A stretch of 64,000 nt of DNA from contig UQBS01000007.1 of assembly GCA_900539345.1 (NCBI GenBank), positions 8,246 to 72,245 of the forward strand. The letters run 5' to 3'. Position numbers and translations under genes: made by a program. This document shows positions 1,289 to 48,705 of this stretch, in pieces. The number at the start of each line of letters is the position of its first letter. Positions within the stretch are counted from its first letter, which is position 1. The DNA is from an uncultured Coriobacteriaceae bacterium (GTDB taxonomy: Bacteria; Actinomycetota; Coriobacteriia; Coriobacteriales; UMGS124). The notes beneath the pieces were generated by a model. That model saw only the letters and a program-made list of their open reading frames with translations. It did no database searches and was not told the DNA's origin.

Positions 1289-1371
1289 GGCTCCCCGAAT
1301 GGTCCAAGCGCAGTTTTGCAGCCGCGCCCTTCGCGGCGAAACTGTTTGAGCATTGGACCATTCGGGGAGCC
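1289..1371 (+). repeat. Family-B long hairpin element, copy B1
   Basis: A perfect 18-bp inverted repeat, GGCTCCCCGAATGGTCCA / TGGACCATTCGGGGAGCC, encloses the core GCGCAGTTTT-[GCCGCG cccTT CGCGGC]-GAAACTGTTTGAGCA. The same core recurs at 6233-6314. It lies 29 nt downstream of the icd stop codon. Confidence 0.8.
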
Positions 1372-6232: not shown

Positions 6233-6314
6233 GGGCCGAAGGGCTGTTCAGGCGCAGTTTTTCGGCGCGGGTTATGCGCCGAAACTGTTTGAGCACTGAA
6301 CAGCCCTTCGGCCC
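6233..6314 (+). repeat. Family-B long hairpin element, copy B2
   Basis: A perfect 19-bp inverted repeat, GGGCCGAAGGGCTGTTCAG / CTGAACAGCCCTTCGGCCC, encloses GCGCAGTTTTT-[CGGCGC gggttat GCGCCG]-AAACTGTTTGAGCA. The core is shared with copy B1. Confidence 0.8.
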
Positions 6315-10979: not shown

Positions 10980-11372
10980 ATGCCAGCAAGAAACACCGTA
11001 CAGCGCAGCGTCATCGAAGCCGAGCTGCGACACTTGGCGAACCACCCCACCGTCGACGAGGTGTACGCCGCCGTGCACGAGGAGCACCCCAGCATCAGCA
11101 AGGCGACGGTGTATCGCACGCTCAACATGCTCTCCGATGAGGGTGCCATCAGCCGTGTGAAGATCAACAACGGCGCCGACCACTTCGATCACACCGCCTT
11201 TTTCCACTATCACGTGCGGTGCCTGGGATGCGGCAAAGTCGACGACGTCATGATTCCCATACTCGCAGGCATTGAGGAGACCGCCAGCGCCGCCAGCGGC
11301 TACCACGTGGTAAGCCACACCCTGCAGTTCGACGGCTACTGCCCCGCCTGTCAGGCAAAGGAACAGGATTAA
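10980..11372 (+). CDS. Fur-family metalloregulator (Fur/PerR/Zur; subtype not resolved)
   Basis: A 130-aa ORF. NTVQRSVIEAELRHLANHPTVDEVY...ISKATVYRTLNMLSDEG...HYHVRCLGCGKV...DGYCPACQ shows a winged helix plus two CxxC pairs. GGGAGG lies upstream of the ATG. Confidence 0.9.
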   Translation: MPARNTVQRSVIEAELRHLANHPTVDEVYAAVHEEHPSISKATVYRTLNMLSDEGAISRVKINNGADHFDHTAFFHYHVRCLGCGKVDDVMIPILAGIEETASAASGYHVVSHTLQFDGYCPACQAKEQD

Positions 11373-11565
11373 CGAGCGCTTGAGGGAAGGAGGGTATCCT
11401 ACGCCTGCCCAAGTCCTCGTACCGAGGGCAGCGGGAAACCGGGGCACGGGGCGCTTCGCGCCTTGTGCCCCTTCCCTTGCCCTCACTGCGGGGGACAGGC
11501 TTCGGAAACCCTCCTTCCACGCACGTCTATCCTGTAAGAAGCGTTTAATCAACCCGCGCAACGCC

Positions 11566-11832
11566 GCGCATCAGGTTCCGCGACCCATTAAAAAGCAGGC
11601 TCTCAGGCGCAAGGCGCGCAGGTGCGATGTGCGCGGTGCGGGCCTTTGGCCTACTGGAGTACATGAGGCACCGTGCATGGAGCGCTCTTTGCGACAAGTC
11701 CCGTAGAGAACGCGGCGGATCGGGTTCCGCAATCCACTAAAAAGCAGGTTCTCGTCCGCAAGGCGTCCAGAGGCGATGCGTACTGGAGTACGTGAGCCTC
11801 TGGAGAACGCAGCGGACGAGGTTCTGCATCAC
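11566..11832 (+). repeat. Family-A modular hairpin repeat, locus A1 (a 3' fragment, a long unit and a short unit)
   Basis: The short unit spans 11736-11832. Its parts are ACTAAAAAGCAGGTTCT, CGTCCGC, AAGGCG, TCCAGAGGC, GATGCGTACTGGAGTACGTGA, GCCTCTGGA, GAACGCA, GCGGACG and AGGTTCTGCATCAC. It abuts the stop codon at 11833. Confidence 0.85.
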
Positions 11833-12228
11833 TTACGCGTAGATCTCTTTTTCCACGACGAGGTCGTTCTTGATTTTCCCCACCAGCTTGTTGAGCGCGT
11901 CGATGCAGCGCGGACGGATATCAGCGCCAATCATGACGTACATGATGGAGTCACCCACGTTGAGGGCGCCCTCGTTGAGCCACGTGCGGACGTAGTACAC
12001 GCCAGGCCAGCTGAGAGCCTCCTTCTCAGCGGCGGCCACGCCCTCGGCATCGTAAGAGAACTCAACCTGGGCGACCTCGCCCAGACCCTCAACACCCTCG
12101 CGCACCTGCTGCTTGGGCGTGATGCGCACCACGCCGTTGTGCGTAAGGAACATGCCGCACTGGGCGGCCTTGGGGTCGGCCTTGGCCTCTTTGAGCCAGG
12201 CATCCATCGAAGGTTCGGGCTTTGCCAT
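11833..12228 (-). CDS. MoaE-fold (molybdopterin synthase large-subunit-like) protein
   Basis: GMFLTHNGVVR...EFSYDAEG...GALNVGDSIMYVMIGADIRPRCIDALNKLVGKIKNDLVVEKE follows the MoaE pattern (TFxGxVR ... HRxGxLxxGD ... KE). The likely ATG at 12228 follows GGGAG. No moaD gene is adjacent. Confidence 0.5.
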   Translation of the reverse strand: MAKPEPSMDAWLKEAKADPKAAQCGMFLTHNGVVRITPKQQVREGVEGLGEVAQVEFSYDAEGVAAAEKEALSWPGVYYVRTWLNEGALNVGDSIMYVMIGADIRPRCIDALNKLVGKIKNDLVVEKEIYA

Positions 12229-12268
12229 ATCCATACTCCCTTTGGTCTCATACACACTTGACGGTTAT

Positions 12269-12306
12269 CAAAAACGCCGCCTGACATTGTACCCGTCAGA
12301 CGGCGC
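12269..12306 (-). terminator. Terminator after the HEAT-repeat gene
   Basis: CGCCGCCTGAC (12275-12285) pairs imperfectly with GTCAGACGGCG (12295-12305). On the minus strand the hairpin is followed by TTTTT. Confidence 0.55.
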
Positions 12307-12428
12307 AAAAGAAGCGCATATGCGAAACTAGAGGTCAACGCAACCCGAGCATGAATCCACACAGGGGACCAAGCCGCACATTCAACTCGATAGCGGCGCA
12401 TGCGTGCAGGACCGCGTTGAACGCCCTT

Positions 12429-13394
12429 CTACTCGAACGTGGCAAGCGCTTGCGTCACGAGGGGGGCCAGGACATCCGGAAGCGCGGAGACGGAAGCGTC
12501 AAAAGCCGAAAGGGTCGCATGGGCCTTGCCGTCGTGGATGCGCGCGAGGCTCTCCACCGCATAGCGAGCCCCCCACTCGGCCTCGCCGGCAAGGGCGCCC
12601 TCAAGCACCGCCTGCACCTGGTCACGCGAAGCGCTCTGCGCACCACAGGCAAAGCCGAGGGCCCACACCGCCGTGGAAGAGACATCCGAATCAGGGTCGG
12701 TAGCACAAACGAGCAGGGCAGACAGCACACGCTCCCCCACGCCCTCGTTGCGCTCGCAGCGGCGGGCCAGAGCGTCGAGCGCTGACACCTTCACAAGCGC
12801 GTCCTCCTCCGCCTGGGACAGGCGCTCAAGCAGAAGCTGCTCGCCGGCCTCGTCGTCGGTGGCAGCCAGAGCGGCGCAGGCGTTTGCACGCACGCGGACC
12901 ACATCGTCTTCGAGAAGCACGGTGAGGGCATCGGTCGCACGGGCATCGCGCAGCGTGCCCAGCACGGCGGCAGCATCGGCGCGCACACCGTCGTCGGGGT
13001 CGAACGCCATGACGGCGATGGGCGTAAAGAGCTCGGCGCGCTCGGCGTCAGTCAGCCCCGCATGGGCCACCACGTTGGCAAGGCCCCACAGCACACCTGC
13101 GCGCACACCGGCGCACTCGTCATGGCGGTGGGACAGAAGCGCGCCCACGCACGCAGCGTCGGCCTCGCGCGCGAGCGCCTGACAGGCCAGGGCACGCACG
13201 CCCTCCTCGGCATCCTCCAGCGCACGGCAGAGCAGCTCGGTGGACACCGGGCTCTTGATGCGCCCCAAAGCCACGACGGCGCTCTTGCGCACGCGCACAT
13301 CGGAATCGGTCAGCATGGGCTCCAAAGAGCGCGCACGCTCGTCAGGCGTGCGGCCGTCGTCCGGGCGCACCGCTGTTTCGTCAGTCTCGGCCAT
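12429..13394 (-). CDS. HEAT-repeat (PBS-lyase-type) protein
   Basis: A 321-aa ORF with repeated D..VR..A...LG modules (VRKSAVVALGRIKSP, GVRALACQALAREAD, VRAGVLWGLANV, GVRADAAAVLGTLRD, VRVRANACAALAA). Confidence 0.78.
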   Translation of the reverse strand: MAETDETAVRPDDGRTPDERARSLEPMLTDSDVRVRKSAVVALGRIKSPVSTELLCRALEDAEEGVRALACQALAREADAACVGALLSHRHDECAGVRAGVLWGLANVVAHAGLTDAERAELFTPIAVMAFDPDDGVRADAAAVLGTLRDARATDALTVLLEDDVVRVRANACAALAATDDEAGEQLLLERLSQAEEDALVKVSALDALARRCERNEGVGERVLSALLVCATDPDSDVSSTAVWALGFACGAQSASRDQVQAVLEGALAGEAEWGARYAVESLARIHDGKAHATLSAFDASVSALPDVLAPLVTQALATFE

Positions 13395-13435
13395 GGGGCC
13401 CCTTTCCGTAGGTCAAAGTCATACCCACGCACCAT

Positions 13436-13479
13436 ACCAAAGCGGGGCGCCGCCCGCACACTCCCAAGCAGCGCCCCGC
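13436..13479 (-). terminator. GC-rich hairpin, a possible terminator downstream of clpB and the repeats
   Basis: GCGGGGCGC (13442-13450) pairs with GCGCCCCGC (13471-13479). On the minus strand it is followed by TTTGGT. The T tract is weak. Confidence 0.4.
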
Positions 13480-13501
13480 AATCTATCTCTCAAACACCGC
13501 A

Positions 13502-13770
13502 CTTAAAAGCGCAGGTTCTGCATCACTCTAAAACGCAGGTTCTGGCCTGCAAGGCGCGCGATGCCAACGTGCGCGGTGCGGGCCCCTGACCTACTAGAGT
13601 ACTCTAGGCATCGCGCATGGAGCGTTCTTCGCGACAAGTCCCGTGGAGAACGCAGCAGGCCAGGTTCTGCATCCTCTAAAACGCAGGTTCTCAGGCGCAA
13701 GGCGCACGGAGCCGATGTGTACTGGAGTACATGAGGCTCCGTGGAACACAGCGCCTGAGGTTCTGCGTCG
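13502..13770 (+). repeat. Family-A modular hairpin repeat, locus A2 (an uninterrupted flank motif, a long unit and a short unit)
   Basis: The flank motif without a hairpin lies at 13502-13526. The long unit spans 13527-13674 (outer stem GGCCTGC/GCAGGCC, inner stem CGCGATGCC/GGCATCGCG). The short unit spans 13675-13770 (outer stem CAGGCGC/GCGCCTG, inner stem CACGGAGCC/GGCTCCGTG). It abuts the clpB stop codon. Confidence 0.88.
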
Positions 13771-13772
13771 CT

Positions 13773-16427
13773 TTACTCGACCGAGTCGGGCTCGACGGGG
13801 ACGTCTTCGGGGCTGGCCGCCCTCTGCGCACGAGCCTTGGCCGAGGCCTCCTCGTCCTTCTCGACCACAATGTTGCCGTCGTTGTCGACGTCGACGCGCA
13901 CCACGTCGTTCTCAGAGAGCTTGCCGTCGATGATGAGGTTCGCGATGCCGTCGACCACCTTGTTCTGGATGAGACGACGTAGCGGACGGGCGCCAAACGC
14001 CGGATCGAGGCCGCCCAGGCTGAGGGCGTCCATGGCACTGGGCGTCACGGTCATGCTGAGACGCTCGCGAGCAAGGCGTTCGCGCACGTCGTCAAGCTGC
14101 AGGTCGACAATGCGCTCGATGTCGGCGTAGCCCAGCGAGTTGAAGTACACCACATCGTCGATACGGTTGACGAACTCCGGGCGGAAGGCCTGCTTGAGCA
14201 CCTCTTGCATCTTCTGCTGCAGCTCGTCTTTGCCCGTGGTCTCCAGAATGAACTGCGAACCCAGGTTGCTCGTCATGATGATGATGGCGTTCTTGAAGCT
14301 CACCACGCGGCCCTGGCCGTCGGTAAGCCTGCCGTCATCGAGCACCTGGAGCAACACGTTGAAGACGTCGGGGTGCGCCTTCTCAAGCTCGTCGAGCAGC
14401 ACCACGGTGTAGGGATGACGACGTACGGCCTCGGTGAGCTGACCGCCCTCGTCGTAACCCACGTATCCCGGAGGGGCACCGATGAGGCGCTGCACGCTGA
14501 ACTTCTCCATGTACTCGCTCATGTCGATACGCACCATGGCGCGCTCGTCATCGAACAAGGCTTCTGCCAGCGCCTTTGCCAACTCGGTCTTACCGACGCC
14601 GGTGGGACCCATGAACAGGAAGCTGCCCAGGGGACGGTCGGGGTCAGACAAGCCTGCACGAGAACGACGCACGGCGCTCGCCACGGCGTGGACGGCCTCG
14701 TCCTGACCGATGACGCGCTCCTTGAGGTGCTCCTCGAGGTGACGGAGCTTCTCCATGTCGCCTTGCATCATCTTCGACACGGGCACGCCCGTCCAGGCGC
14801 TCACCACAGCGGCGATCTCGTCTGCGGTGACCTCCTCCTTGAGGTTAGCGCCGGCCTCCTGCTTGGCGCGCAGGCGCTGCTCGGCGTCGCGGTAGTCGGC
14901 CTCAAGCTTGGGGATCGTGGAGTAGCGCAGCTCGGAGGCACGCATGAGGTCGCCGGAACGCGTGGCGCGCTCCTCTTCGCTGCGGGCTTCGTCAATCTGG
15001 CTCTTGAGCTGCTGCACCAGGTCGATGATGCCCTTTTCGTTCTGCCAGGCCGCCTTGGCGGCGTCGAGCTTCTCACGGGCATCGGCGATTTCGTGGCGCA
15101 GGGTCTGCAAACGCTCGGCGCTGGCCTCGTCGTCCTCCTTCATGAGCGCCTGCTCCTCGATCTGCATCTGAGTGAGCTGGCGCTCCTGGGCATCGATGTC
15201 GCTGGGCATGGAGTCGAGCTCCATCCTCAGGCGGCTGCCGGCCTCATCGACCAGGTCGATTGCCTTGTCGGGCAGGAAACGGTCGGTGATGTAGCGGTCG
15301 GAGAGCTGGGCTGCGGCCACAAGCGCAGAGTCGGTGATACGCACGCCGTGGTGGATCTCGTACTTCTCCTTGATGCCACGCAGGATGGAGATGGTGTCCT
15401 CCACCGTGGGCTGGTCGACCATGACGGGCTGGAAACGCCTGGCAAGAGCCGCGTCCTTCTCGATGTACTTGCGGTACTCGTCAAGCGTCGTGGCGCCGAT
15501 GGCATGCAGCTCGCCACGGGCAAGGGCGGGCTTCAAGATGTTGGAGGCATCCATGGAGCCACCCGAGGCGCCGGCACCCACGATGGTGTGCAGCTCATCG
15601 ATGAACAGGATGACGTTGCCGCCAGCCGCCGCGACCTCCTTGAGCACGGCCTTCAGGCGGTCCTCGAACTCGCCACGGTATTTGGCGCCTGCCACCATGG
15701 CGCTCATGTCGAGCTCGATGAGCTCGCGGTCACGCAGGGTCGAAGGCACGTCGCCGGCAACGATGCGCTGCGCAAGGCCCTCGACGATAGCCGTCTTGCC
15801 GGTACCGGGCTCACCGATGAGCACGGGGTTGTTCTTCGTGCGGCGCGAAAGCACCTGCACCGTGTGACGAATCTCCTCGACACGACCGATGACCGGGTCG
15901 AGCTTGCCCTCGCGGGCCAGGTCGGTCAGGTTGCGACCATACTGCTTGAGCGCCTCGAACTGGGGCTTGCTCTCGGCGTCGGTCACGCGCGAGTCACCGC
16001 GGAGCTGCTCGTAGGCGTCCTGCACGCGCTTGGCCGTCACGCCGGCGTCGTTCAGGATGCGACCGGCGTCGCCCTTGTCGCCTGCAAGCGCGATAAGCAG
16101 GTGCTCGGTGGTGGCAAACGAGTCGCCCATCTTCGAGGCGAGCTTCTGCGAAGCGTCGAGCACGCGCATGAGCCCCTGGCTCATGCCGGCCTGGGAGCCG
16201 CCGCTCACGCGGGGCTGGCTTGCCAGCTTCTCGTCAACAGTAGCCTTGAGCTGGGCGGGGTCGGCGCCCACACGCTCGATGATGGCATCGAGGTTGCGCT
16301 CGGAGCTCTCAAGCAGGGCCTTCAGAAGGTGAAGGCTTGTGACCTCGGAAGCCTCCATGTCGGAGGCAACGCCCACGGCTTCCTGCAAAGCGGCCTGGGC
16401 GGTCATTGCGAATTTGTCAATCCTCAT
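13773..16427 (-). CDS. clpB: ATP-dependent chaperone / disaggregase ClpB
   Basis: The product has two AAA+ modules ([15 protein letters not shown] and [15 protein letters not shown]), a middle coiled coil and a Clp N-domain. The likely ATG at 16427 gives MRIDKF. The ORF frame overlaps the hspR stop codon. Confidence 0.96.
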
Positions 16428-16432
16428 ATGTG

Positions 16433-16882
16433 TCACCCATCCTTCTCGGTGCCCATATCCTTCTTCTCAAGGTCGGACACTCCCGCCAGCAGCGCCAGCG
16501 GGCTCTTACCGCCCTCGGCATACGGCATGAGGGCGGTGATGGTCTCGCGCATCCGGTACTCGTGGACCTGCTCGCGCAGTTCCTTGATCTCGGCGCGCAA
16601 CTGCTCTATCTCGGCGTCGCGCTCATCCATCTGGGTCTTCATGTCCAGGATGCGCACAACGCCAGCAAGGTTGATGCCCTCGTCGGTCAGACGACCAATG
16701 AGGTCGAGCCGCTCGATATCGGCCTGTGAGTACAGGCGCGTGTTGCCCGAGCTGCGGCGCGGGTTCACCAGACCCTTGCTCTCGTAGATGCGCAGGGTCT
16801 GGGGATGCATGCCGGTGAGCTCGGCGGCAACCGAGATCATGTACAGCGGGCGGTTTCTCTCGTCGTCGTTTCTCGAGGGCAT
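16433..16882 (-). CDS. hspR: MerR-family heat-shock repressor HspR
   Basis: [46 protein letters not shown] is a MerR helix-turn-helix. The gene sits in the classical actinobacterial position after dnaJ. Confidence 0.85.
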
Positions 16883-16888
16883 CTTGGA

Positions 16889-17845
16889 TTACCTCTTATC
16901 CTTGAGCGCGCCGCGAGGGTCACGCTTGTCATGGTCGCGCAGGCGCTCGAGTGCCTCGCGTTCCTCATCGGTCAGGTTGCGGGGCACAGCGATGGCAATC
17001 TTCACGTAGAAGGAGCCGGTCGAGCCCTTGTGCTTCACGTCGGGGGCGCCCATGCCCTTGAACCTGAAAACCTTGCCAGACTGGGTGCCGGCGGGAATCT
17101 TGAGCTTGAGGTCCTTGCCGTTAGGGGCAGGCACAACGACCTCGGCACCCAGGCACGCCTCGTACACACTCACAGGCAGGTCCATATGGATGTCGGCCCC
17201 GTCGCGGGTGTAGAAGGGGTGCGCCGCCACGCGCGTGGTCACCACGAGGTCGCCGCGGGCTCCGCCCTGCGAGCCATACTCGCCGCGCTCACGGTAGCGC
17301 AGCTTGCCGCCGTCAACGGCACCTGCGGGAATCTTGACGGTGAGCGTCTCGGTCGTGCCCGTGGAGGGGATGCGGTAGCTCACCTTGCGCGAGACGCCCT
17401 CCAGAGCCTCCTTGAACGAGACCTCCACGCTCATGGTCAGGTCGCTGCCGCGCTGCGGACGGGGCTGGCCCCAGCCGTTGAATCCGCCGAAACCGGTGGT
17501 CTGCGGATCCCACTCGGTGCCAAAGGCGCCTTCGCCATGCAGGATGGAGTCGATGATGGACTGCCAGTCCATACCCGCCCCACCCGTGTAGCTGTAGCTG
17601 CCGCCGGCGCCGGGGTTTCCACCCATGAACGCACCGTACTTGAGCGCCTTGTCGTACTCCGCACGCTTCTTGGGGTCGGAGAGGACCTCGTAGGCCTGGC
17701 TGACCTGCTTGAACTCCTCTTCGTCTCCGCCTGCGTCAGGGTGAAGCTTCACGGCAAGCTTGCGGAACGCCTTCTTGATTTCGTCGTCGGATGCCTTTTC
17801 GTCGACACCCAGAACTTCGTATAAGGTTTTCTGAGTCGATGCCAT
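16889..17845 (-). CDS. dnaJ: J-domain co-chaperone (DnaJ/CbpA type, no Cys-rich zinc-finger region)
   Basis: The ATG at 17845 is preceded by GGAGG. The J domain reads [34 protein letters not shown]-like linker and two C-terminal beta domains follow. No CxxCxGxG repeats are present. Confidence 0.85.
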
Positions 17846-17875
17846 GTTGAAGAACACCCTCCTTCCAAGAGTAGG

Positions 17876-18026
17876 TTGCGGAACCTGATGCGCCACGTTG
17901 CGCGATACCTAGAGTACCGCCGTAGGCCAAAGGCCCGCACCGCGCACGTCGGCATCGCGCGCCTTGCGCATCAGAACCCGCGTCGGTAAAGGCGAAACCT
18001 GATGCGCGGTCTTGCGCAGGCATCAG
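17876..18026 (-). repeat. Family-A modular hairpin repeat, locus A3 (inverted orientation; a long-type unit and a degenerate mini unit)
   Basis: The parts are GCGGAACCT, GATGCGC, ..., GGCCAAAGGCCCGCACCGCGCAC, ..., GCGCATC and AGAACCCGCGT. The middle module is the reverse complement of the A1/A2 long-unit module GTGCGCGGTGCGGGCCTTTGGCC. It lies between grpE and dnaJ. Confidence 0.8.
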
Positions 18027-18147
18027 GGGGCCTTTGGGAATGCCTCTTGAGCTTGACAAAGGCCGCGTCGGAAGAACTCTCCGGCGCGGCCTTTGCTCGT
18101 CTACGTTGGTGCGTCTCCTTAGAAGCGCAACGCCCTACGGCCTTGCG

Positions 18148-18800
18148 CTACTCCTCGGTAGCCGCAGGTTGGGCCGGGCCGCCCTTGGCAACCGTGACCA
18201 TCGCGGTGCGGATGACGCGTCCGCCCATGCGATACCCCTTCTGGTACACGTCCTTCACGGTGTTGTCGGGCACCGTGGGGTCGGGCACCTGGGCGATGGC
18301 CTGGTGGTCGTTCATGTCGAACGGCTGGCCGGCCGGGTCGATGGCTTCAACGCCCGAGCGATGCAGGGCGTCGATAAGCTTGTCGTACACGGCACGAACG
18401 CCGCTCACGAACTCACCGTACGCGCCTTCCGGGTTGGACTGGGCGGCGTGGTCAAGAGAACGCTCCATGTCGTCGACCACAGGGAGGAGCTTCATGACGA
18501 GGTCCTCCGTGGCGCGAGCCTTCTCGTCCTCACGCTCGCGTGCGGTGCGCTTGCGGAAGTTGTCCCACTCGGCCTGCAGACGCAAGAACTTGTCGTTGGC
18601 GGCAGCGGCGTCGGCGCGTGCCTTCTCGATGTCTGCCATCGAGAAGACCTCGTCGACCGCGTCGGCAACGGCCTGCTCGTCTACCTGCTGGCCGTCTTGC
18701 TCCTCAGCCTCGATAACCTGGGCCTCAACGGGCATCTCCTCAACGGGGAGCGCCTCGTCGGCACCCTGAGTCTCGGGCTTGTTTCCGTCGGCGGGCATCA

Positions 18801-18801
<1 letters not shown>
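18148..18801 (-). CDS. grpE: Nucleotide exchange factor GrpE
   Basis: A 217-aa ORF. FLRLQAEWDNFRKRTARERE...LLPVVDDMERSL...GYRMGGRVIRTAMVTV matches GrpE. Its ATG overlaps the dnaK TAA stop codon (TAATG). Confidence 0.92.
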
Positions 18802-20720
<1,919 letters not shown>

Positions 20721-20798
20721 GATGTAACCTCTCTTCAATAGATGGCGGGCCTCTTCCACCGCTTCTCCGGTGGGGTTACCCTTCCTTGATCGAAAGGC

Positions 20799-20804
20799 AT
20801 TATA
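20799..20804 (-). promoter_or_regulatory. Possible -10 box (TATAAT) upstream of dnaK
   Basis: The minus strand reads GGGATATAATGCC about 80 nt upstream of the dnaK ATG. I found no convincing -35 box at 17-nt spacing. Confidence 0.3.
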
Positions 20805-20886
20805 TCCCGTTTACTGCGGGGGCATACAAAATCTAAGTCTCTTCATATAACATTTTTTGATTGTGATTCTGAAAGGGCTTCAAACC

Positions 20887-21453
20887 ATGGGAAACGGGAC
20901 AAAAACGCAGGCACAAGGCACAAGACTGCCCGAAGCCAATGTGGAGGCCATCTACATGGAGCGCACAAACGACGAACTCGAGAGCCTCGCCGAGGAAGGG
21001 TTCATCACATCGGGCAACGCGTTTTGCCGCGTGCTGCTCGTAAAGGGAAGGCCCGGCCCGGCAGAGGCAGGCGGCGGCGACTTGCTGTCCGGCGCAGACG
21101 GCGAAGCCCTGCGGGCGGGGCTTGCGCGGCTGGGCTGGAAAGAGGGTGACTGGGCCGGCCTCGCGACGTTTTTAGGACAGGACGGCTTTCCCCAGGCCGA
21201 CCCGGCCGACCTGGCCGTGGCCGTGGAGGTGTTCGACCCAGAGTGCGTCGTGGCGCTCGACTCCCCCGCCGCCCGCAACCTGGCCCTTGCCTGGGGGCTG
21301 CCCGAGCCGCTGCCGGCAGGCAAGGTCGAGCGCGTGTTCGGCCGGCGCGTCTTGGCAATGGGAGGCTTCGAGGCTGCCTTGGCCAGCCAAGACGGGAAGA
21401 AAGAGATGTGGCGCCGACTTCGCCAGCTCCCCCCTCTCCCCTCCCCTTTATAG
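20887..21453 (+). CDS. Uracil-DNA-glycosylase-superfamily-like protein with degenerate active-site motifs
   Basis: CRVLLVKGRPGPAEAGGGDLLSGADGEALRAGLARLGW...PECVVALDSPAARNL is collinear with family-4 UDG (VGEAPGxxED..GxPFvGxAGxLL...vvaLG..A). However, GEAPG and PF are replaced. The start codon is uncertain. Confidence 0.45.
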   Translation: MGNGTKTQAQGTRLPEANVEAIYMERTNDELESLAEEGFITSGNAFCRVLLVKGRPGPAEAGGGDLLSGADGEALRAGLARLGWKEGDWAGLATFLGQDGFPQADPADLAVAVEVFDPECVVALDSPAARNLALAWGLPEPLPAGKVERVFGRRVLAMGGFEAALASQDGKKEMWRRLRQLPPLPSPL

Positions 21454-21455
21454 AG

Positions 21456-21654
21456 TTGCGGAACCTCGTCCGCTGCGTTCCGCGGAGTCTCATGTACGTC
21501 CAGTACACATCGACTCCGCGCGCCTTGCGGACGAGAACCCGCGTTTTGGCAGGCGGAACCTGATGCGCTGGCATGTGGTACGCTGCGGCTCCGCGCGCTT
21601 TGCGCATCAGAACCTGCGTTTTGGTGGGCGGAACCTGGCCTGCTGCGTTTTGGG
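21456..21654 (-). repeat. Family-A modular hairpin repeat, locus A4 (inverted orientation; a short unit, a truncated unit and a fragment)
   Basis: The short unit spans 21458-21549 (outer stem CGTCCGC/GCGGACG, inner stem CGCGGAGTC/GACTCCGCG, apical TCATGTACGTCCAGTACACATC). A GATGCGC...GCGCATC unit and a GGCCTGC fragment follow. The locus starts 3 nt after the TAG stop codon at 21451-21453. Confidence 0.85.
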
Positions 21655-21727
21655 TGTGAGATACAGCAAAGGCCGCTCGGTTGCCCGGGCGGCCTTTGGG
21701 TGGTGCAGATGTCCTAGAAAGTCGAAG

Positions 21728-21910
21728 TTACTCGGCGATCTCGGTGATGGCGCCGACCGGGCACTCGTCCTGGCAGTTGGCGCAGCCGATGCAGTCGCCC
21801 TCGTTGACGACGGTGCAAACGTTGTCCTGGAGCTCGATGACGCCAGCGGGGCATGCGTCGATGCAAGCGCCGCAGCCGATGCAATCAGAAGCAGTGATAA
21901 CAGGATGCAT
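21728..21910 (-). CDS. 2x[4Fe-4S] ferredoxin (60 aa)
   Basis: It carries two CxxCxxCxxxCP motifs (CIGCGACIDACP and CIGCANCQDECP). Confidence 0.9.
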   Translation of the reverse strand: MHPVITASDCIGCGACIDACPAGVIELQDNVCTVVNEGDCIGCANCQDECPVGAITEIAE

Positions 21911-21963
21911 GGATCTTCCTCTCCTCGTTTAGCCCGCCAACTCTAGCAGACCAAGTTCCTCTC

Positions 21964-22140
21964 ACCAAAACGCGGCCCCCGCACAACACGCGAGCGTCCG
22001 CTCAAGACGCGGCTCTCACGCGGCGCATCAGGTTCCGCCCATTAAAACGCGGGTTCTCGTCCGCAAGGCGCCGGGAGGCGATGCGTACACATGGTACGTG
22101 AGCCTCCCGGGAACGCAGCGGACGAGGTTCCGCTACATCC
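21964..22140 (+). repeat. Family-A modular hairpin repeat, locus A5 (a degenerate unit and a short unit)
   Basis: The short unit spans 22041-22140. Its parts are ATTAAAACGCGGGTTCT, CGTCCGC, AAGGCG, CCGGGAGGC, GATGCGTACACATGGTACGTGA, GCCTCCCGG, GAACGCA, GCGGACG and AGGTTCCGC. It abuts the stop codon at 22143. Confidence 0.85.
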
Positions 22141-22142
22141 TA

Positions 22143-22337
22143 CTAGTCGTCGTCGTCGCAGATCTCGGTGATGGCGTTGACCGGACACTCCTCCTGGCAC
22201 TCGCCGCAGCCCTTGCACTCGGACTCGTCAACGACGGTGCAGAAGCCGTCGTCGATCTCGATGGCGCCCGTGACGCACACGTCAACGCAGGCGCCGCAGC
22301 CGATGCACTCGTCAGTGTCAATAATGGGGTAAGGCAT
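22143..22337 (-). CDS. 2x[4Fe-4S] ferredoxin (64 aa), paralog of 21728..21910
   Basis: The ATG at 22337 follows GAGAGGAG. The motifs are CIGCGACVDVCV and CKGCGECQEECP, and the protein has an acidic DDDD tail. Confidence 0.9.
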   Translation of the reverse strand: MPYPIIDTDECIGCGACVDVCVTGAIEIDDGFCTVVDESECKGCGECQEECPVNAITEICDDDD

Positions 22338-22451
22338 GAGTCTCTCCTCTCTCAACGGGCACAGGGCCCGCAAATACTTTCCGAACACGGTAGCCCGTAT
22401 TCCCGGCTGCAGTGCCTCCATACATCGCAGCCGTCAACGGCGGGTAGGGTA

Positions 22452-37959: not shown

Positions 37960-40900
37960 CTATCTTAAATCATCGAGCATGCCCGCCAAAACCCATCCAT
38001 AAGAACTCACCGAAGCCCAACGAGAGCCAAGGCCTTCGACATAGGGGCACCAGCCGGCCAGCCAAGAGGAGAAGCGCGGGTCGACCAGGGGGTGCTTGAG
38101 CAAGCTCGTGTTGCCGGCGTAGTCGGCCATGCGCGGGTCGGCGTAGAGGCGCAGGTGCTGCACCTGGGCGCGCAGTCCCTCGCGCACCGAGGCGAACGTG
38201 TGGCCGGCAGCGCCGTCGTCGGTGGCGCCCAGGCCGGAGAAGTTGCACTGAGTGGGGTCGACCTGGCCTCCAAAGCGCAGGTAGCCGGTCTCATTCATGG
38301 CCTGCACGTACACCACGCCCGGGTCGACGCCCTCGTCGCGCGCCTCTTCGTAAAGAATCTTGCAGAACTCCTCGATGGTGGCCGCGCCCTTGTCCTTGTA
38401 CACATCGGCAGGGTAGGTCGCCCCAGAGGCCTTGTAGTCGGCGACCATGTCGGCAACCGTGACCTTGCTGTTTGCGTTCATGATGGGGTGCAAGGCCGTG
38501 GAGAACTCAACCGTGGCAAAGGCCTGCTTCTCCGCGTCTGCCGTGGGAGCCGCCCACACCTGCGCGACATAGTCGCCTGCGGCCAGCTGCGAGCGGGCGA
38601 GCTCGACTGCCCACGTACCCTTGGCCTCGCCAGCCGAGGAGAGGTCGAGGTCTTCGACATAGCGGGCGATGAACCACTGGGCAGTCGTGGCGTCGGAGCC
38701 TGCCTTCCAGATGGCGATGCTCACCGCACCTGCGGGCTTTACCTGGCCCGACGGGATCCAGAACTCATAGCCCGCTCCCTCGTCGGTCATCCTGCACGAA
38801 AGGGCGGTTACCTCAAAAGGGGCGTTTTCGCCACCCCCGTTGTCGGGCGCGGACCAACCGATGACACCCGAGAAGACGTCGAACATCTTTGCTGCCTGGG
38901 CGCGGGTGGCAGATTCCTTGGGGTTGAGCAGCGCAATGCCGGTGGTCGTATCGCCGGTGAGGATGCCCTTGGCGTTGCACCAGGCAAGCGCGTCATAGGC
39001 GAAGTCGCTCACCTCGTCGGCATCATAGAACGCGTCGATGGAGCCAACGTACACGTTGAGCCCGCAGCCCTTGGCATAGCGCCACAGCATGGTGGCGAGC
39101 TCCTCGCGGCTCACCGTCTTGTCGGGACGGAAAAGGCCGGCATACTCGCCGTCCTTGTAGCCGGTGACGATCCCCTGCTGGTAGGCCCACTCGATTGCGG
39201 CGGTATACCACTGCCCGAGGGCGACGTCGGGGAAGCTCGACTCCATGCCGTAATTGGAGGGGTCGGTGGTGGAGGTGCTCGAGGGGTTCGCGATGCGGTA
39301 GAGCATCGTGGCCACCATGCCGCGCGTCATGGTCTCTTCCGGGCCAAAGGTACGGCACACCCCGTCGTCATCGGAGAAGCCGGTCATGATGCCGGCGTCG
39401 ACCACATGCGCCACATAGTCCAGGTACCACTCGCCAGCTTCGAGGTCGTTGAAGCGCTTGACCTCGCCCGTGGTGGAGACACTCGCCAGCACGGAGTTGG
39501 CGGCGCTTGCCACATACCCGTCGAAGCGCAAGGTACCTACGACCACGTCTGCGGGAAGCTTGAAAGAAGCCTCCCAGGTCGTACCATCGACCTTGGTCAT
39601 CTCAAGCGAATGCATGGTGCCGTCGGGGAAGGTGACGTCAACATAGAAGTGGGCAGCGCCGGACAGGCCGGTGGAACCGCCAAGCGTCACGGTGCGCGTG
39701 GCGCCGTCGATGTCGGCAACGTGCAGCTCGCTCAGCGACAGGCCGGAGTTGTCCTTGTCCTTGGACAGACCAAAGAAGTCGGCGATGCCCTTGGCGTCGG
39801 CAACGCCGAGGTCGTGCAACGCCGTGTCGCTTGAGAGGAACTTGTAATCGTCCTTGCCGGAGATGAACGCATGCTCGACGATGATACCGGGGACGTTGTT
39901 CTTCTTGGTGTTGCGGATGATGGAATAGTAGTCGCGCTCGTTGCCAGAGCCGTCGATGTAGGTGTCGTTTTCCTTGATGCCGCGGTCATACAGGCCCAGG
40001 GCGACAAGGCGATCCTGAATGGACTGCGCGAGGTTCTCGCCGTCCTGGGTGACGGTGGTGATGCCGGCGCTGTAGTTGGGGAACCACACCTCGGCACCAT
40101 GGGAATTCGACGTGTCGGCCGAGTTGATGTGGATGCTCACGAACACCGAAGCGCCCGCAGCAACGGCATCGGCGACGCGGCGCTTGAGGCATTCGGCCTC
40201 GTTGTGGTCGTAATCGGTGAAGTAGGGGCAGTCGCCCGAATCGTCGCGCGTCATGTAGACGCTCACGCCGGGGTAGGTCTCCAGCTCATCGCGGCATGCC
40301 TGGGCGATCTTGAGCGTGAGTTCCTCTTCTCGCAGGTCTTGGCCCTGGGCGCCGGGAGACTGGTTGTCATGACCGGGATCGAGGGCAATGACAAGGCCGG
40401 GAAGCTTCGTTGTAGCCTGGCCCTCGGCGTCGGAGGCGGCATCGACGGCCATGGCGTTGAGCATGACGTCGGAGACGCCCGCGACGTCGAGCGCGTCCTC
40501 GACGCTCTGGGCTTCCACAAGCTCGCCTGCGGCGTCGATGGTATAGGCGGTGAGGTCGGCAACAGGTTCAGTCGCCTGGGTGACCTCAAACACATACGCG
40601 CTGGTAGAAAGCGCAAAGTCCACCGCATGCTCGCTACCGTCGGCAAGGGTGTACGAGAGGGACCTCAGAGACGAGGTTCCCTGGCCGAGCAGCGCCGTAT
40701 CGATATTGAAGAGCATGGCCTCCATGTCGATGGCAGAAACCTCAACCTCAACGTCACCGTAAGGCGAGGAAAGGGTGAGCTGGGCAGACACGACCTGGCT
40801 CGCCTCATCGGCAAGCATGAGCGCGACCTGCTGGGTCTGGCCCTCCTCCAAGCTCGCCAGGGAAACGTACACCAAGGAGAGTGCCTCTTCGGGAGCGAGG

Positions 40901-41292
40901 GGTGCCTCGGGGGTCGCGTCGTCTGGCGATGCAGAGTCATCGGAAGAAGCAGGCTCGCTGGGCTCGGGGGTCGGCTGCTCTTCCTCGGGTTGGTCCGCAG
41001 GCGTCTGCTCGCCCTCCTGCTCATCGGCGGGATCGGGCTGGGGCTCGGCGTCGACATCGCCCTGGGCGGTGTCATCCGAAGGGGCATCCGGGGCCGGCTC
41101 GGCAGGAGCGGATGCATCTGCGCCCTCTTGATCGGTTCCCGCCTGGGCGGCGGGGGTCGAAGCGACCTCGTATGCCGGGGCCTGACCGGCCTCATCGGCA
41201 AGCGCCTGAGCGGCGGGCATGAATCCGCTGAGGATCATCGACCAGCTCACGAGGCACGAAAGGGCAAGATTGGCAACGGGATGTTTTGTCAC
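37960..41292 (-). CDS. SLH-anchored bifunctional peptidoglycan hydrolase (MurNAc-L-Ala amidase plus C-terminal glucosaminidase)
   Basis: The GTG at 41292 follows AAGGAG, and a signal peptide is present. The Amidase_3 domain (LDPGHDNQ...FVSIHINS...IIVEHAF) is encoded at about 39840-40400. Three SLH repeats (FNDLEAGEWYLDY..., FPDVALGQWYTAAIEW..., FYDADEVSDFAYDAL...) are encoded at about 38865-39453. The glucosaminidase-like end (VYVQAMNETGYLRFGG) is encoded at about 38090-38380. Confidence 0.88.
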   Translation of the reverse strand: MTKHPVANLALSCLVSWSMILSGFMPAAQALADEAGQAPAYEVASTPAAQAGTDQEGADASAPAEPAPDAPSDDTAQGDVDAEPQPDPADEQEGEQTPADQPEEEQPTPEPSEPASSDDSASPDDATPEAPLAPEEALSLVYVSLASLEEGQTQQVALMLADEASQVVSAQLTLSSPYGDVEVEVSAIDMEAMLFNIDTALLGQGTSSLRSLSYTLADGSEHAVDFALSTSAYVFEVTQATEPVADLTAYTIDAAGELVEAQSVEDALDVAGVSDVMLNAMAVDAASDAEGQATTKLPGLVIALDPGHDNQSPGAQGQDLREEELTLKIAQACRDELETYPGVSVYMTRDDSGDCPYFTDYDHNEAECLKRRVADAVAAGASVFVSIHINSADTSNSHGAEVWFPNYSAGITTVTQDGENLAQSIQDRLVALGLYDRGIKENDTYIDGSGNERDYYSIIRNTKKNNVPGIIVEHAFISGKDDYKFLSSDTALHDLGVADAKGIADFFGLSKDKDNSGLSLSELHVADIDGATRTVTLGGSTGLSGAAHFYVDVTFPDGTMHSLEMTKVDGTTWEASFKLPADVVVGTLRFDGYVASAANSVLASVSTTGEVKRFNDLEAGEWYLDYVAHVVDAGIMTGFSDDDGVCRTFGPEETMTRGMVATMLYRIANPSSTSTTDPSNYGMESSFPDVALGQWYTAAIEWAYQQGIVTGYKDGEYAGLFRPDKTVSREELATMLWRYAKGCGLNVYVGSIDAFYDADEVSDFAYDALAWCNAKGILTGDTTTGIALLNPKESATRAQAAKMFDVFSGVIGWSAPDNGGGENAPFEVTALSCRMTDEGAGYEFWIPSGQVKPAGAVSIAIWKAGSDATTAQWFIARYVEDLDLSSAGEAKGTWAVELARSQLAAGDYVAQVWAAPTADAEKQAFATVEFSTALHPIMNANSKVTVADMVADYKASGATYPADVYKDKGAATIEEFCKILYEEARDEGVDPGVVYVQAMNETGYLRFGGQVDPTQCNFSGLGATDDGAAGHTFASVREGLRAQVQHLRLYADPRMADYAGNTSLLKHPLVDPRFSSWLAGWCPYVEGLGSRWASVSSYGWVLAGMLDDLR

Positions 41293-41354
41293 CGTGTGCT
41301 CCTTACTTCTCGTATGGCTCCGCAAGACGCACGGCGGCGTATGCGGAAAGTCAA

Positions 41355-41393
41355 CAAAAGCACCTGGCATGGTACCATCCCCATGCCAGGTGC
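41355..41393 (-). terminator. Rho-independent terminator
   Basis: GCACCTGGCATGG (41360-41372) pairs with CCATGCCAGGTGC (41381-41393). On the minus strand it is followed by TTTTG. Confidence 0.7.
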
Positions 41394-41472
41394 ATGATTC
41401 CGCAATTGGAAAAACAGCGTTCCGTCCCTGCCGCGCCGTTATTGTATACAGCCAAAATGCCTGGTCAGAAGG

Positions 41473-43224: not shown

Positions 43225-43375
43225 CAATGGTGCGCCCTTCCGACAACAATCAGGTGTACGAGCGGGGCCAGTCTACACCATGCCAGAGCAACGCGCATCG
43301 CATAGAGGCACGAGACGCCCTGCGGCACCCGAGCGCGACACAAACAGACGATAAGAATGGCCACAACCCGAAACA

Positions 43376-43414
43376 CGCGCGCCCCGCACTCCAGGTTCGA
43401 GGGCGGGGCGCGCG
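43376..43414 (-). terminator. Perfect 12-bp GC hairpin between two SLH genes (possible terminator)
   Basis: CGCGCGCCCCGC (43376-43387) pairs with GCGGGGCGCGCG (43403-43414). The loop is ACTCCAGGTTCGAGG. The T tract is weak. Confidence 0.4.
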
Positions 43415-48680: not shown

Positions 48681-48705
48681 GTGTGCGGTATCGGTGTGCG
48701 GCGTC

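Follow-up and report, generated by a model that had tools for sequence, protein, structure and literature searches.

Family A is, on the evidence of its sequence, a previously uncatalogued hairpin-forming DNA repeat of gut Coriobacteriaceae. It is an interspersed palindrome arranged in tandem arrays, like the REP, REPIN and BIME elements, and is not a stand-alone structured RNA gene. Its unit is a nested imperfect palindrome that can fold into one long hairpin from either strand, and the compensatory changes in its stems are real. The reading adopted here, with moderate confidence, is that family A is a lineage-specific interspersed repeat that would work like the proteobacterial REP/REPIN/BIME elements, being constrained in structure and recognised as a folded single strand.

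To our knowledge REP/REPIN-type elements have been described almost exclusively in proteobacteria, and how they function and spread is still debated. Family A offers a new handle on this debate from a gut actinobacterial lineage that is abundant but little studied. The anatomy of the unit is exceptionally clear, with invariant bulges set within freely covarying stems, while a sharp placement rule, an apparent age gradient in the arrays and variation between strains provide further handles. Two questions become testable, namely which protein reads such hairpins, and whether the hairpins matter to the mRNA or to themselves only.

The initial annotation of this DNA had allowed that no further copies might exist in the genome, and the search for them instead returned more than 108 loci among the matches listed, nearly all in about ten Coriobacteriales/Coriobacteriaceae assemblies from uncultured gut bacteria, with at least 11-18 loci per genome among these matches. 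All copies are intergenic, and the family is, among the matches listed, high-copy, extragenic and restricted to its lineage. About 12 matches fall in unrelated taxa, among them a cyanobacterium, Mycobacterium, Halorubrum and Streptomyces, and are isolated and due to chance; one of them (L005) is in fact a coding tandem repeat. Rfam gave no match at the gathering score for the whole window and only chance-level matches (E 0.8-8) at permissive thresholds for positions 11300-22400, and plasmid and phage collections gave no match to the unit. Literature searches found nothing relevant on REP, palindromic or hairpin repeats in Coriobacteriaceae or Collinsella, and nothing applicable, in the papers covered, on REPs or MITEs at stop codons.

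Unit anatomy and the five arrays of the window

The short unit is 85 bp long, and units with the modules M1 and M2 are about 110-140 bp. Its parts follow one order in all five loci of the window (the whole 64-kb stretch of DNA analysed): a flank, the outer stem, the linker AAGGCG, the inner stem, the apex, the second inner arm, the GAAC linker, the second outer arm and AGGTTCYGC. The two flank motifs had at first been treated as lying outside the stem; the motifs themselves hold, but GCRGGTTCT pairs with AGGTTCYGC, with R covarying with Y, so that the whole unit is one long hairpin. Within it the GCG of AAGGCG pairs with the CGC of GAACGCA. The fixed unpaired features are an AAG/A internal loop, a GAA bulge and a wobble-flanked T:T mismatch, and the GA/A at the base of the apex and the GGTTC cores of the flanks are fixed as well. 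The outermost tails of the element differ (AAAC and GTGRGTT), the inverted match being limited to the paired GCRG...CYGC.

The initial annotation had described this module at five places, three in one orientation and two inverted, and a read-out of the sequence finds all five as described, together with the covariation of the apical stem (GCGTAC/GTACGT versus GTGTAC/GTACAT), the small set of outer stems (CGTCCGC, CAGGCGC, GGCCTGC and GATGCGC) and the two modules of the long forms. The four inner-stem pairs that it quoted lie at exactly the positions given and are perfectly complementary:

11766-74, TCCAGAGGC, with 11796-804, GCCTCTGGA: perfect complement
13705-13, CACGGAGCC, with 13735-43, GGCTCCGTG: perfect complement
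22071-79, CCGGGAGGC, with 22102-10, GCCTCCCGG: perfect complement
21481-89, CGCGGAGTC, with 21512-20, GACTCCGCG: perfect complement

The flank motif AACGCRGGTTCT, with at most one mismatch, occurs nine times in the window against 0.51 expected, a count reached by none of 100 shuffles, and eight of the nine occurrences are inside the five loci. Matches to a covariance model built on 105 units and run over the 64 kb are confined to these loci; the four full copies score 99-107 bits, and just 26-30 bits when read on the opposite strand. Each locus is a tandem array of one or two full units and one truncated or degenerate unit, as listed here with the covariance-model scores:

11559..11581, plus strand: array A, gene-distal solo half, AACGCC-GCGCATC-AGGTTCCGC, with just the 3' linker, outer 3' arm and 3' flank
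11590..11730, plus strand: array A, long unit with M1 (GTGCGCGGTGCGGGCCTTTGGCC) and M2 (CATGGAGCGCTCTTTGCGACAAGTCCCGTAGA); weak match at 11595-11674, 13.3 bits
11739..11827, plus strand: array A, gene-proximal intact short unit, outer stem CGTCCGC, inner stem TCCAGAGGC; 102.5 bits
13442..13479, minus strand: ordinary terminator-like hairpin followed by TTTGGTATGG, past array B along the clpB transcript
13505..13521, plus strand: array B, collapsed unit AAAAGCGCAGGTTCTGC, the 5' flank joined straight to the 3' flank
13530..13670, plus strand: array B, long unit, outer stem GGCCTGC/GCAGGCC, inner stem CGCGATGCC/GGCATCGCG, with M1 and M2; 22.5 bits
13678..13766, plus strand: array B, intact short unit, outer stem CAGGCGC, inner stem CACGGAGCC; 99 bits
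17878..17987, minus strand: array C, medium unit, outer stem GATGCGC, inner stem CGCGATGCC, M1 only; match at 17880-17979, 55.5 bits
17993..18008, minus strand: array C, distal solo half, GCGCATC-AGGTTTCGC
21458..21547, minus strand: array D, intact short unit, outer stem CGTCCGC, inner stem CGCGGAGTC; 106.7 bits
21553..21622, minus strand: array D, internally truncated unit, outer stem GATGCGC, 5' inner arm CGCGGAGCC, inner 3' arm gone; match at 21553-21617, 36.5 bits
21628..21651, minus strand: array D, distal solo half, AAAACGCA-GCAGGCC-AGGTTCCGC
21950..22038, plus strand: array E, degenerate old unit(s) ending in a solo half, GCGCATC-AGGTTCCGC, at 22023-22038
22044..22133, plus strand: array E, intact short unit, outer stem CGTCCGC, inner stem CCGGGAGGC; 102.3 bits

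The short unit of array A is separated by a 5-nt spacer (ATCAC) from TTA 11833-11835, the stop of a minus-strand MoaE-like gene (Pfam MoaE), and the long unit of the same array is chimeric, its outer arms CAGGCGC and GCGGATC being non-complementary. In array B a 6-nt spacer (GTCGCT) leads to TTA 13773-13775, the stop of the minus-strand clpB gene (ClpB domains), and the terminator-like hairpin at 13442-13479 beyond the array places it between the clpB stop codon and the native terminator. Array E reaches the stop of a minus-strand ferredoxin gene (CTA 22143-22145) across a 9-nt spacer. The short unit of array D is 4 nt from TAG 21451-21453, which ends a plus-strand gene of 198 aa that is called in every one of the related loci L109-L118. 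Array C is the exception to the stop-codon rule, as it lies between grpE and dnaJ (GrpE and DnaJ domains), 32 nt 5' of the dnaJ ATG and in mRNA sense.

Covariation and constraint on the fold

In 105 distinct short units 93.6% of paired cells are complementary, compared with 79.9% after shuffling and 26-52% with the partners slid out of register. Both sides have changed at all nine inner-stem pairs, at five of the seven outer-stem pairs and at 18 of the 32 pairs overall, and the covariation score (0.416 against 0.176) was equalled by none of 500 shuffles. Unpaired linkers are 93-100% identical and stems 68-71%, a contrast that persists in 77 units collected without any linker sequence requirement. 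The early claim that unpaired parts are conserved and paired parts covary is thus borne out; the covarying pairs survive the addition of copies, and the stems do not reduce to a few clonal subfamilies, since 31 inner and 12 outer types occur in 56 combinations. A companion claim, that this is a folded nucleic acid rather than a decaying repeat, stands as regards constraint on the fold but is not supported as a contrast, many copies being truncated, collapsed or chimeric.

Covariation alone cannot separate RNA from single-stranded DNA, nor selection from gene conversion or hairpin-templated repair. Family A could be a passive repeat under no structural selection, with stems kept by hairpin-templated (quasi-palindrome) repair and by gene conversion of both arms at once, and arrays arising as VNTR-like by-products of slippage. 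Outer, inner and apical modules do occur in many combinations, whole units are swapped between strains, chimeras are joined at the linkers, and solo halves are explicable by deletion between internal direct repeats (AACGCRG). Template-switch repair would, however, erase the asymmetric bulges and the T:T mismatch too, yet these are invariant in 105 of 105 units, and the bulges are also kept in units collected without sequence requirements. G:U intermediates are present at low frequency at covarying pairs, as stepwise compensation predicts, and the passive account leaves the placement at stop codons and the fixed orientation described below unexplained. It is therefore considered quite unlikely, and the conservation of the asymmetric bulges argues for constraint on a folded single strand.

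Placement at stop codons and turnover of the arrays

A callable ORF adjoins 79 arrays. In 67 of these the ORF is encoded on the opposite strand and its stop codon is separated from the AGGTTCYGC end by 0-12 nt (3-16 nt from stop codon to AGGTTC), which places the arrays in 3' UTRs in a fixed orientation. Contact with stop codons, at first claimed for three copies (clpB, the ferredoxin gene and the MoaE-like gene), is thereby extended to a family-wide rule. Arrays D and E are separated by about 300 nt and point in opposite directions, each behind its own gene; orientation is thus set by the gene and not by the direction of replication. The commonest spacer between stop codon and array is 6 nt (20 of the 67 arrays), and its sequence is similar to the inter-unit junction TTT-TAG-TGGGTT-GCGG. 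The C-termini of adjoining proteins are native, for example GyrB ...ARYLDI. Adjoining genes include core or housekeeping genes such as the dnaK operon, clpB and gyrB; arrays were also considered as a marker of one functional gene class, an idea set aside as the genes are diverse and share no common theme. About 10% of arrays instead have the opposite sense and closely precede a ribosome-binding site (array C in the window and locus L002).

In mRNA sense a unit forms a highly stable hairpin with GCGG/CCGC as its closing pairs and G-UUUU(U)-A behind it, and it is far larger than typical intrinsic terminators, with up to four units in an array. From these sequences, transcribed units are probably also a 3' hairpin on mRNAs. 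Family A may even be a host-functional RNA module of the 3' UTR (an intrinsic terminator, a block to 3'-to-5' exonucleases or a structure that couples to the termination of translation) that recombination spreads and selection keeps, a possible though doubtful explanation. The unit starts inside the ribosome footprint of the stop codon, and its structure could therefore couple to translation termination. REPs stabilise upstream mRNA, and Liang, Rudd and Deutscher are said to have found in 2015 that translation is reduced when a REP lies within about 15 nt of a stop codon. Such a module fits the fixed orientation close to stop codons, the preservation of the ORF-nearest unit as the intact one, an mRNA-sense hairpin of -46 kcal/mol, and the dnaK-operon copy (array C), which is flipped into the orientation without the trailing U run. 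The energies also speak against it, since the mean over 105 units is -53.6 kcal/mol for the as-written strand and -46.2 kcal/mol for its complement, and the better-folding strand is the non-mRNA strand in 103 of 105, because conserved G:T wobbles turn into A:C mismatches in mRNA sense. Among non-Watson-Crick cells (G:T 47, A:C 30, other 46) the mismatches are not G:U-biased in mRNA sense; the asymmetry of G:U and A:C was considered as an indicator of the functional strand, and 47 against 30 gives no clear strand signal. Native terminator-like hairpins come after the arrays, and a simple terminator scan did not call the units as terminators. The lack of a common theme among adjoining genes tells against the module as well, and a presence of 0-3 units among near-identical genomes is hard to square with a tuned function.

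The arrays are polar. All units are on the same strand in 100 of 104 arrays, and most arrays have an intact unit next to the stop codon and a truncated solo half at the far end, such halves being the last element of the array in 31 of 32 cases. Counted by rank from the stop codon, perfect units make up 47 of 67 at rank 0, 13 of 52 at rank 1 and 1 of 26 at rank 2. Distal remnants are common across strains and proximal units differ; the distal solo half of array D, for instance, is common to 8 of 10 related genomes, with an 8-bp variant in one (L113: AGGTTTCGC). Among contigs whose 60-aa ferredoxin is identical, the spacer at this one site ranges over 100-458 nt, equivalent to 0-3 units, and chimeric units have arisen among these genomes by recombination at conserved linkers (L109 against L110, a difference explained by deletion between the AACGCA linkers of adjacent units). 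A tendency of neighbouring units to avoid identical stems was looked for and dismissed, 13 of 110 neighbour pairs sharing an outer stem against 16 expected. With such variation among near-identical genomes the arrays are markers for strain typing, and they are a likely cause of assembly breaks and of mis-annotated gene ends in Coriobacteriaceae MAGs.

Indels between strains are bounded by a direct repeat of AGGTTCYGC, not by TA, and could therefore reflect recombination or slippage instead of transposition. No clean insertion event defining the ends of the element was found, all the 'empty' orthologous sites examined carrying family scars. These observations bear on the reading of family A as a MITE moved by a TA-duplicating DDE transposase (IS630/Tc1-like, as for the Correia elements of Neisseria) with the TA of TAA and TAG stops as its target. 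Solitary units with no solo half have TA on either side (L003 and L021), TA also stands within the conserved inter-unit junction TTT-TA-G, and 61 of the 67 adjoining stops are TAG or TAA. Stop usage nevertheless matches the background (TGA 9% against 15%, not significant), and a special type of stop codon at arrays was rejected on the same figures. The termini are not mutual inverted repeats past GCRG...CYGC, a solo half is present at nearly every array, and neither a transposase nor a longer parent was found in the sampled loci, all of which makes a DDE origin very unlikely.

Proposed mobilisation and comparison with known systems

The REP-like reading would account for these observations as follows. 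Only the fold and a few asymmetric unpaired features would be constrained; stem sequences would merely be required to pair, and could thus drift by compensatory change and be reshuffled among copies. Units pile up head to tail in 3' UTRs, starting 0-12 nt past the stop in a gene-fixed orientation, with intact and apparently youngest units at the stop-codon side and a truncated, apparently old unit at the far end. They are gained, lost and recombined rapidly, breaking and joining at the conserved linkers and AGGTTCYGC repeats. The existence of the family, its fold and covariation, the placement rule, the polarity and strain-level turnover of the arrays and the chimeras are demonstrated by the results above, whereas the parts played by a protein and by the mRNA are inferred. 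A protein that acts on the folded single strand may make its contacts at the conserved unpaired features; it would most plausibly be of HUH/Y1 type, by analogy with REP-RAYT, and would seed copies strand-specifically beside TAR stop codons or an existing AGGTTCYGC end. Transcribed hairpins, each followed by GUUUUA, might serve as 3' barriers or weak terminators on the mRNA.

A more specific proposal, which we regard as unlikely, is that family A is a mobile hairpin directed to stop codons: its units would be inserted directly 3' of TAR stop codons, or of their own AGGTTCYGC/TAR end, by an enzyme (HUH-type or other) that works strand-specifically on folded DNA. Arrays so built would be polar, their newest unit always in contact with the ORF, and the host would have co-opted them as 3'-UTR elements coupled to translation termination. 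We know of no description of either form of targeting, or of an age-ordered repeat array other than CRISPR, for bacterial repeats.

No RAYT- or IS200/IS608-like ORF was found by phmmer with IS200, IS608 and YafM queries in 0.86 Mb (the window and 118 loci), a soft negative for Y1 transposases. A search for an autonomous parent element, as 5' and 3' halves with matching arms 250-4000 nt apart, gave chance pairs only, and ORFs bracketed by arrays comprised only ferredoxin, HEAT/MoaE and shadow ORFs, with no transposase. The lack of a RAYT in the 0.86 Mb counts against the REP-like reading, as do the lack of an autonomous element, of a clean insertion and of a GTAG head, the same-facing units and the roughly 10% of arrays upstream of ribosome-binding sites.

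Family A resembles the attC sites of integrons in that structure is kept and stem sequence is not, unpaired bases would set the active strand, and the element starts where an ORF ends. Extrahelical bases conserved in a folded site directly behind ORFs, and genes bracketed by arrays, would suit gene cassettes marked by attC-like or other sites of site-specific recombination. The bracketed genes are, however, core genes, and the sites follow housekeeping genes (dnaK, clpB, gyrB) at many loci scattered across many contigs. The units are in tandem with no ORF in between, the cores (GTTCT/GTTCC, within GGTTCT and AGGTTCYGC) are not GTTRRRY/RYYYAAC, and neither an integrase nor cassettes accompany them, so that membership is rejected and this origin appears extremely improbable. 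The Correia elements and other MITEs are of similar size, nearly complete palindromes with long and internally deleted short forms, and are co-transcribed with neighbouring genes. They have true terminal inverted repeats, a TA duplication and insert regardless of stops, whereas the termini of family A are asymmetric, with no demonstrable TA duplication.

The MIRUs of mycobacteria, also high-GC actinobacteria, are tandem, strain-variable (VNTR-like) intergenic repeats that are oriented with transcription and abut stop or start codons. By description they are set apart from family A as direct repeats without a long hairpin that are thought to carry small overlapping ORFs. The REPs and BIMEs of E. 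coli share with family A a few stem types with conserved linkers, a location in 3' UTRs and within operons, and a unit number that varies between strains, and E. coli REPs affect mRNA 3' ends. In BIMEs short REPs (Y, Z1, Z2) alternate, whereas in family A complete long hairpins face the same way within an array. Family A has no sequence similarity to them and no GTAG-type head at the hairpin foot, and it is not a member of the E. coli type.

The REPIN-RAYT system differs in its REP head of 16-25 nt, the conserved parts of family A being internal bulges, linkers and the hairpin foot, and family A differs in turn in its actinobacterial (Coriobacteriia) host, in the absence of a RAYT from the 0.86 Mb searched, and in its strict stop-codon placement, fixed orientation and polar arrays. 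The two are alike as extragenic hairpins of about 100 nt with conserved motifs and compensatory stem changes, vertically persistent in tens to hundreds of copies, in which singlets decay and tandem clusters carry an extra half-element (Bertels & Rainey 2011, PMC3116915). In REPINs, as described, the REP motifs are conserved, compensatory changes are common in the hairpins, and there are tandem clusters 'plus an additional REP sequence'; the features of their structural definition, a long hairpin from an inverted doublet with conserved motifs and compensatory changes, are all found in family A (PMC3116915).

Anatomy and polarity of Family A units

Family A occurs at five loci in the window, and at every site it forms a tandem array of hairpin units, never a single element, laid out as an intact short unit followed by a long, truncated or chimeric unit and then a stub. 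Direct reading of the window sequence reproduced the module order of the initial annotation at all five stretches, and the four stem pairs quoted there are perfectly complementary and lie at their assigned coordinates. The flank motif AACGCRGGTTCT has 9 matches at ≤1 mismatch in the window compared to 0.5 expected (0 of 100 shuffles gave 9), eight of which fall inside the five loci, and a repeat finder returned the same families in direct and inverted form.

Family A arrays in the window
11559-11827, plus strand: array A, after the MoaE-like gene
13505-13766, plus strand: array B, after clpB
17878-18008, minus strand: array C, between grpE and dnaJ, with the dnaJ start downstream
21458-21651, minus strand: array D, after a 198-aa gene
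21950-22133, plus strand: array E, after a ferredoxin gene

A covariance model, proposed initially as a check, was built from 105 units and run on the window with filters off, and matched the Family A sites only. The full copies score just 26-30 bits on the opposite strand and the element therefore has a defined polarity.

Covariance model matches in the window
Four full copies: 99-107 bits
17880-17979: 55.5 bits
21553-21617: 36.5 bits
Long forms: 22.5 and 13.3 bits

The order of modules stands, but the parts first named as flanks are themselves paired. GCRGGTTCT pairs with AGGTTCYGC through six Watson-Crick pairs, two G:T wobbles and one invariant T:T, and the R of the flank covaries with Y (G-C 80 vs A-U 16 pairs in the 105 aligned short units). 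The CGC of linker GAACGCA likewise pairs with the GCG of AAGGCG, leaving an AAG/A internal loop and a GAA bulge. Each unit thus folds as a single long nested hairpin, with a mean folding energy of -53.6 kcal/mol on the canonical strand (as first written) and -46.2 kcal/mol on its complement. The optional module M1 (GCGCGGTGCGSRCCTTTGGYC) can lie on the 5' side of the apex and its reverse complement on the 3' side, and where both are present they pair (L013, a locus outside the window); thus the short form is a deletion derivative of a longer palindrome. A further optional module, M2 (CAYGGAGCG..TTTGCGACRAG.CCCG.GG), occurs on the 3' side only. The outer arms of unit 11590-11730 do not match (CAGGCGC vs GCGGATC).

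Covarying stems and fixed linkers

Pairs were counted over four helices in an alignment of 105 distinct short units. Standard pairs account for 93.6% of cells, compared to 79.9% in column shuffles and 26-52% when partners are slid by 1-3 columns, and the covariation score is 0.416 against 0.176 in shuffles, none of 500 being as high. Both sides have changed in 18 of 32 pairs, including all nine of the inner stem and five of seven in the outer stem, with G:U intermediates at low frequency among the covarying pairs. Column identity is 93-100% in the linkers whereas it is 68-71% in the outer and inner stems. As the original search pattern had prescribed the 5' flank and linker, units were re-collected by perfect arm complementarity and the 3' flank alone. 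GCRGGTTCT and AAGGCG were present in 77/77 and GAACGCR in 66/77, so that the constancy of linkers beside varying stems is not an artefact of ascertainment. The stems are not explained by a few clonal subfamilies, the alternative named in the initial annotation, as inner stems fall into 31 types, outer stems into 12 and apices into 39, and outer and inner stems occur in 56 combinations. The modules are only partly linked (mutual information 1.60 bits vs 1.15 by chance). Avoidance of identical stems between neighbouring units was ruled out (13 observed vs 16 expected).

The case for selection rests most strongly on the invariant bulges, because hairpin-templated repair or gene conversion could maintain perfect stems unselected, yet would remove the bulges too. 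Constraint is read as acting on the fold and a few asymmetric unpaired features, with the stems free to covary and be reshuffled.

Placement at stop codons and turnover of arrays

Family A follows a placement rule that goes beyond what was seen initially. Neighbouring genes were called by ORF length and GC3 in canonical orientation, and in 67 of the 79 arrays with a callable ORF the 3'-side ORF is encoded by the other strand, and 3-16 nt separate its stop codon from AGGTTC. The AGGTTCYGC end is 0-12 nt from the stop codon, most commonly 6 nt (20/67), and past the other end of the array the next gene lies at widely varying distances (11-391 nt). The adjoining proteins (GyrB ...ARYLDI, ClpB, Hsp20, ferredoxin ...DDDD) end in native C-termini. 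Arrays A, B, D and E obey the rule; D adjoins the TAG that ends a 198-aa plus-strand gene, and every related contig has a call for this gene. As D and E face opposite ways, each after its own gene and about 300 nt from the other, orientation is set by the gene and not by replication direction. Ordinary terminator-like hairpins lie beyond the arrays (e.g. 13479-13442 after the clpB array), hence the arrays fill the stretch from the stop codon to the native terminator.

The conserved gene adjoining array D (20857-21453, plus strand; 188-198 aa) is divergent from dnaK, convergent with the ferredoxin gene and without a match in Pfam; its last codon and stop vary by strain with the adjoining array spacer (TTA-TAG, TTG-TAA, CTA-TAG). 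TAG appears to be the commonest stop in this lineage (TAG 51%, TAA 34%, TGA 15%) among 475 long high-GC3 ORFs, crudely called near arrays in the window and in L001-L118, the loci fetched from outside it. This is unusual for an actinobacterium of 63% GC.

A second class, about 10% of arrays, occupies 5' untranslated regions or spacers within operons, in mRNA sense and just ahead of a ribosome-binding site. It includes array C and L002 1085-1163, with the start of a PP-loop ATPase gene downstream, and these arrays end AGGTTCCGC-AACCTACTCT followed by the ribosome-binding site and start codon.

Perfect units become fewer with distance from the stop codon. A solo half (AACGCR, outer arm, AGGTTCYGC) is the last array element in 31/32 cases, thus n full units go with n+1 copies of the 3' half.

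Units ranked outward from the stop codon
Rank 0: 47 perfect, 20 imperfect, 0 solo halves
Rank 1: 13 perfect, 18 imperfect, 21 solo halves
Rank 2: 1 perfect, 9 imperfect, 16 solo halves

Exact lookup of the window's 60-aa ferredoxin returned ten contigs in which both flanking arrays differ widely. The fdx2-fdx1 spacer measures 100, 100, 214, 227, 232, 320, 349, 379, 406 and 458 nt, equivalent to 0-3 units, and array D ranges from a solo half alone up to two or three units; these genomes have distal remnants in common but differ in their stop-proximal units. In the window the tandem ferredoxin paralogues (21732-21886 and 22156-22310) share 78% DNA identity and each is followed by its own hairpin array. 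Indels between strains have the AGGTTCYGC direct repeat at their borders. Deletion between AACGCA linkers in adjacent units accounts for chimeric units (L109 vs L110), and solo halves would be the expected leftover if the stretch between the unit's two internal direct repeats, AACGCRG, were deleted.

Orthologous sites that look "empty" are not naive but carry recognisable scars, for example GAGTTCGCAATATCACTTTG, which is similar to GAGGTTCCGCAACCTACTCTG, or TAG-T-TCAGAATCT-GCCTCCCGG-CTTG (flank and inner arm). Family A is therefore old in this lineage, and arrays collapse, with possible re-expansion in place.

Scarred, empty-looking sites
L010, L061, L073, L075: PP-loop ATPase gene, in its 5' UTR
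L002: after the Hsp20 stop codon

The units may have an RNA role within the mRNA. In mRNA sense they read stop codon, GTGRKT, GCRGAACCT, hairpin, AGAACCYGCG, UUUU(A), with a stop-to-hairpin spacer similar to the inter-unit junction TTT-TAG-TGGGTT-GCGG. The position inside 3' UTRs, fixed orientation, U run after every hairpin, intact ORF-proximal unit and reversed orientation within the dnaK operon favour such a role. However, the non-transcribed strand gives the better fold in 103/105 units, since the conserved G:T wobbles turn into A:C mismatches in the mRNA, mismatch types in mRNA sense show no preference for G:U, near-identical genomes differ greatly in unit number and the adjacent genes share no theme. 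Family A is not a stand-alone structured RNA.

Distribution and nature of Family A

A scan of 185,579 species genomes with the pattern GCRGGTTCT-N7-AAGGCG-N9-RAYGYG gave at least 108 matching loci, among them the further copies that the initial annotation had proposed to look for. Among the matches listed, all but about a dozen single chance matches in unrelated taxa (L005 is a coding repeat) belong to some ten assemblies of uncultured human-gut Coriobacteriales/Coriobacteriaceae, with at least 11-18 loci per genome. Two carrier assemblies, CAVJGP (L012, L031, L034, L041, L070, L074 and others) and CAVEWV (L001, L020, L030 and others), are "cleanbin" assemblies labelled "Alistipes onderdonkii" and "Acutalibacteraceae bacterium"; their many copies lie beside Coriobacteriaceae-type genes and they are probably mislabelled bins with wrong taxonomy. 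Rfam and the plasmid and phage collections gave no match and a literature search found nothing corresponding, so that Family A is uncatalogued as far as searched.

A second hairpin family on the same principle has two copies in the window (1290-1370 and 6234-6313, plus strand) and none in the fetched loci. A small variable hairpin lies between conserved linkers A(A/G)GCGCAGTTTT and GAAACTGTTTGAGCA(C/T)TG, and the long outer stems are wholly different yet complementary (GGCTCCCCGAATGGTCCA.../...TGGACCATTCGGGGAGCC vs GGGCCGAAGGGCTGTTCAG.../...CTGAACAGCCCTTCGGCCC). Several paralogous coding modules (4-8 repeats, 60-80% identity) span about 14 kb at 38881-53221, and a GC-rich tract at 43542-43860 has copy spacings in multiples of 9 nt, mostly 18-36; both are probably parts of genes that encode large, repeat-rich surface proteins, and neither is related to Family A.

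Covariation and fixed linkers bear out the structure-level constraint claimed initially, but the claim that this is not a decaying repeat is not supported for what is a REP-like family with abundant decay. The constraint may come from a protein that reads the folded single strand, possibly an HUH/Y1 enzyme targeting the TAR stop codons or the AGGTTCYGC ends. The 0.86 Mb of loci and window yielded no HUH/Y1 gene with approximate query sequences, no array-bracketed ORF apart from ferredoxin and housekeeping genes, and no parent element. Integron attC sites were rejected (wrong cores, no cassettes, sites after housekeeping genes), and a TA-duplicating DDE MITE is unlikely (asymmetric termini, strain indels not TA-bounded, stop-codon usage at background).

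Family A is most likely a REP/REPIN/BIME-like interspersed repeat. The most economical reading, as with REPs, would be selfish DNA that affects mRNA 3' ends as a side effect. The family would be of more interest were it shown to target stop codons or to act as RNA in a way coupled to translation termination. The closest described thing is the REPIN, an extragenic hairpin of roughly 100 nt with conserved motifs (PMC3116915). New in Family A are the actinobacterial gut lineage, the invariant bulges inside hypervariable stems and the stop-codon-anchored, gene-oriented, polar arrays.
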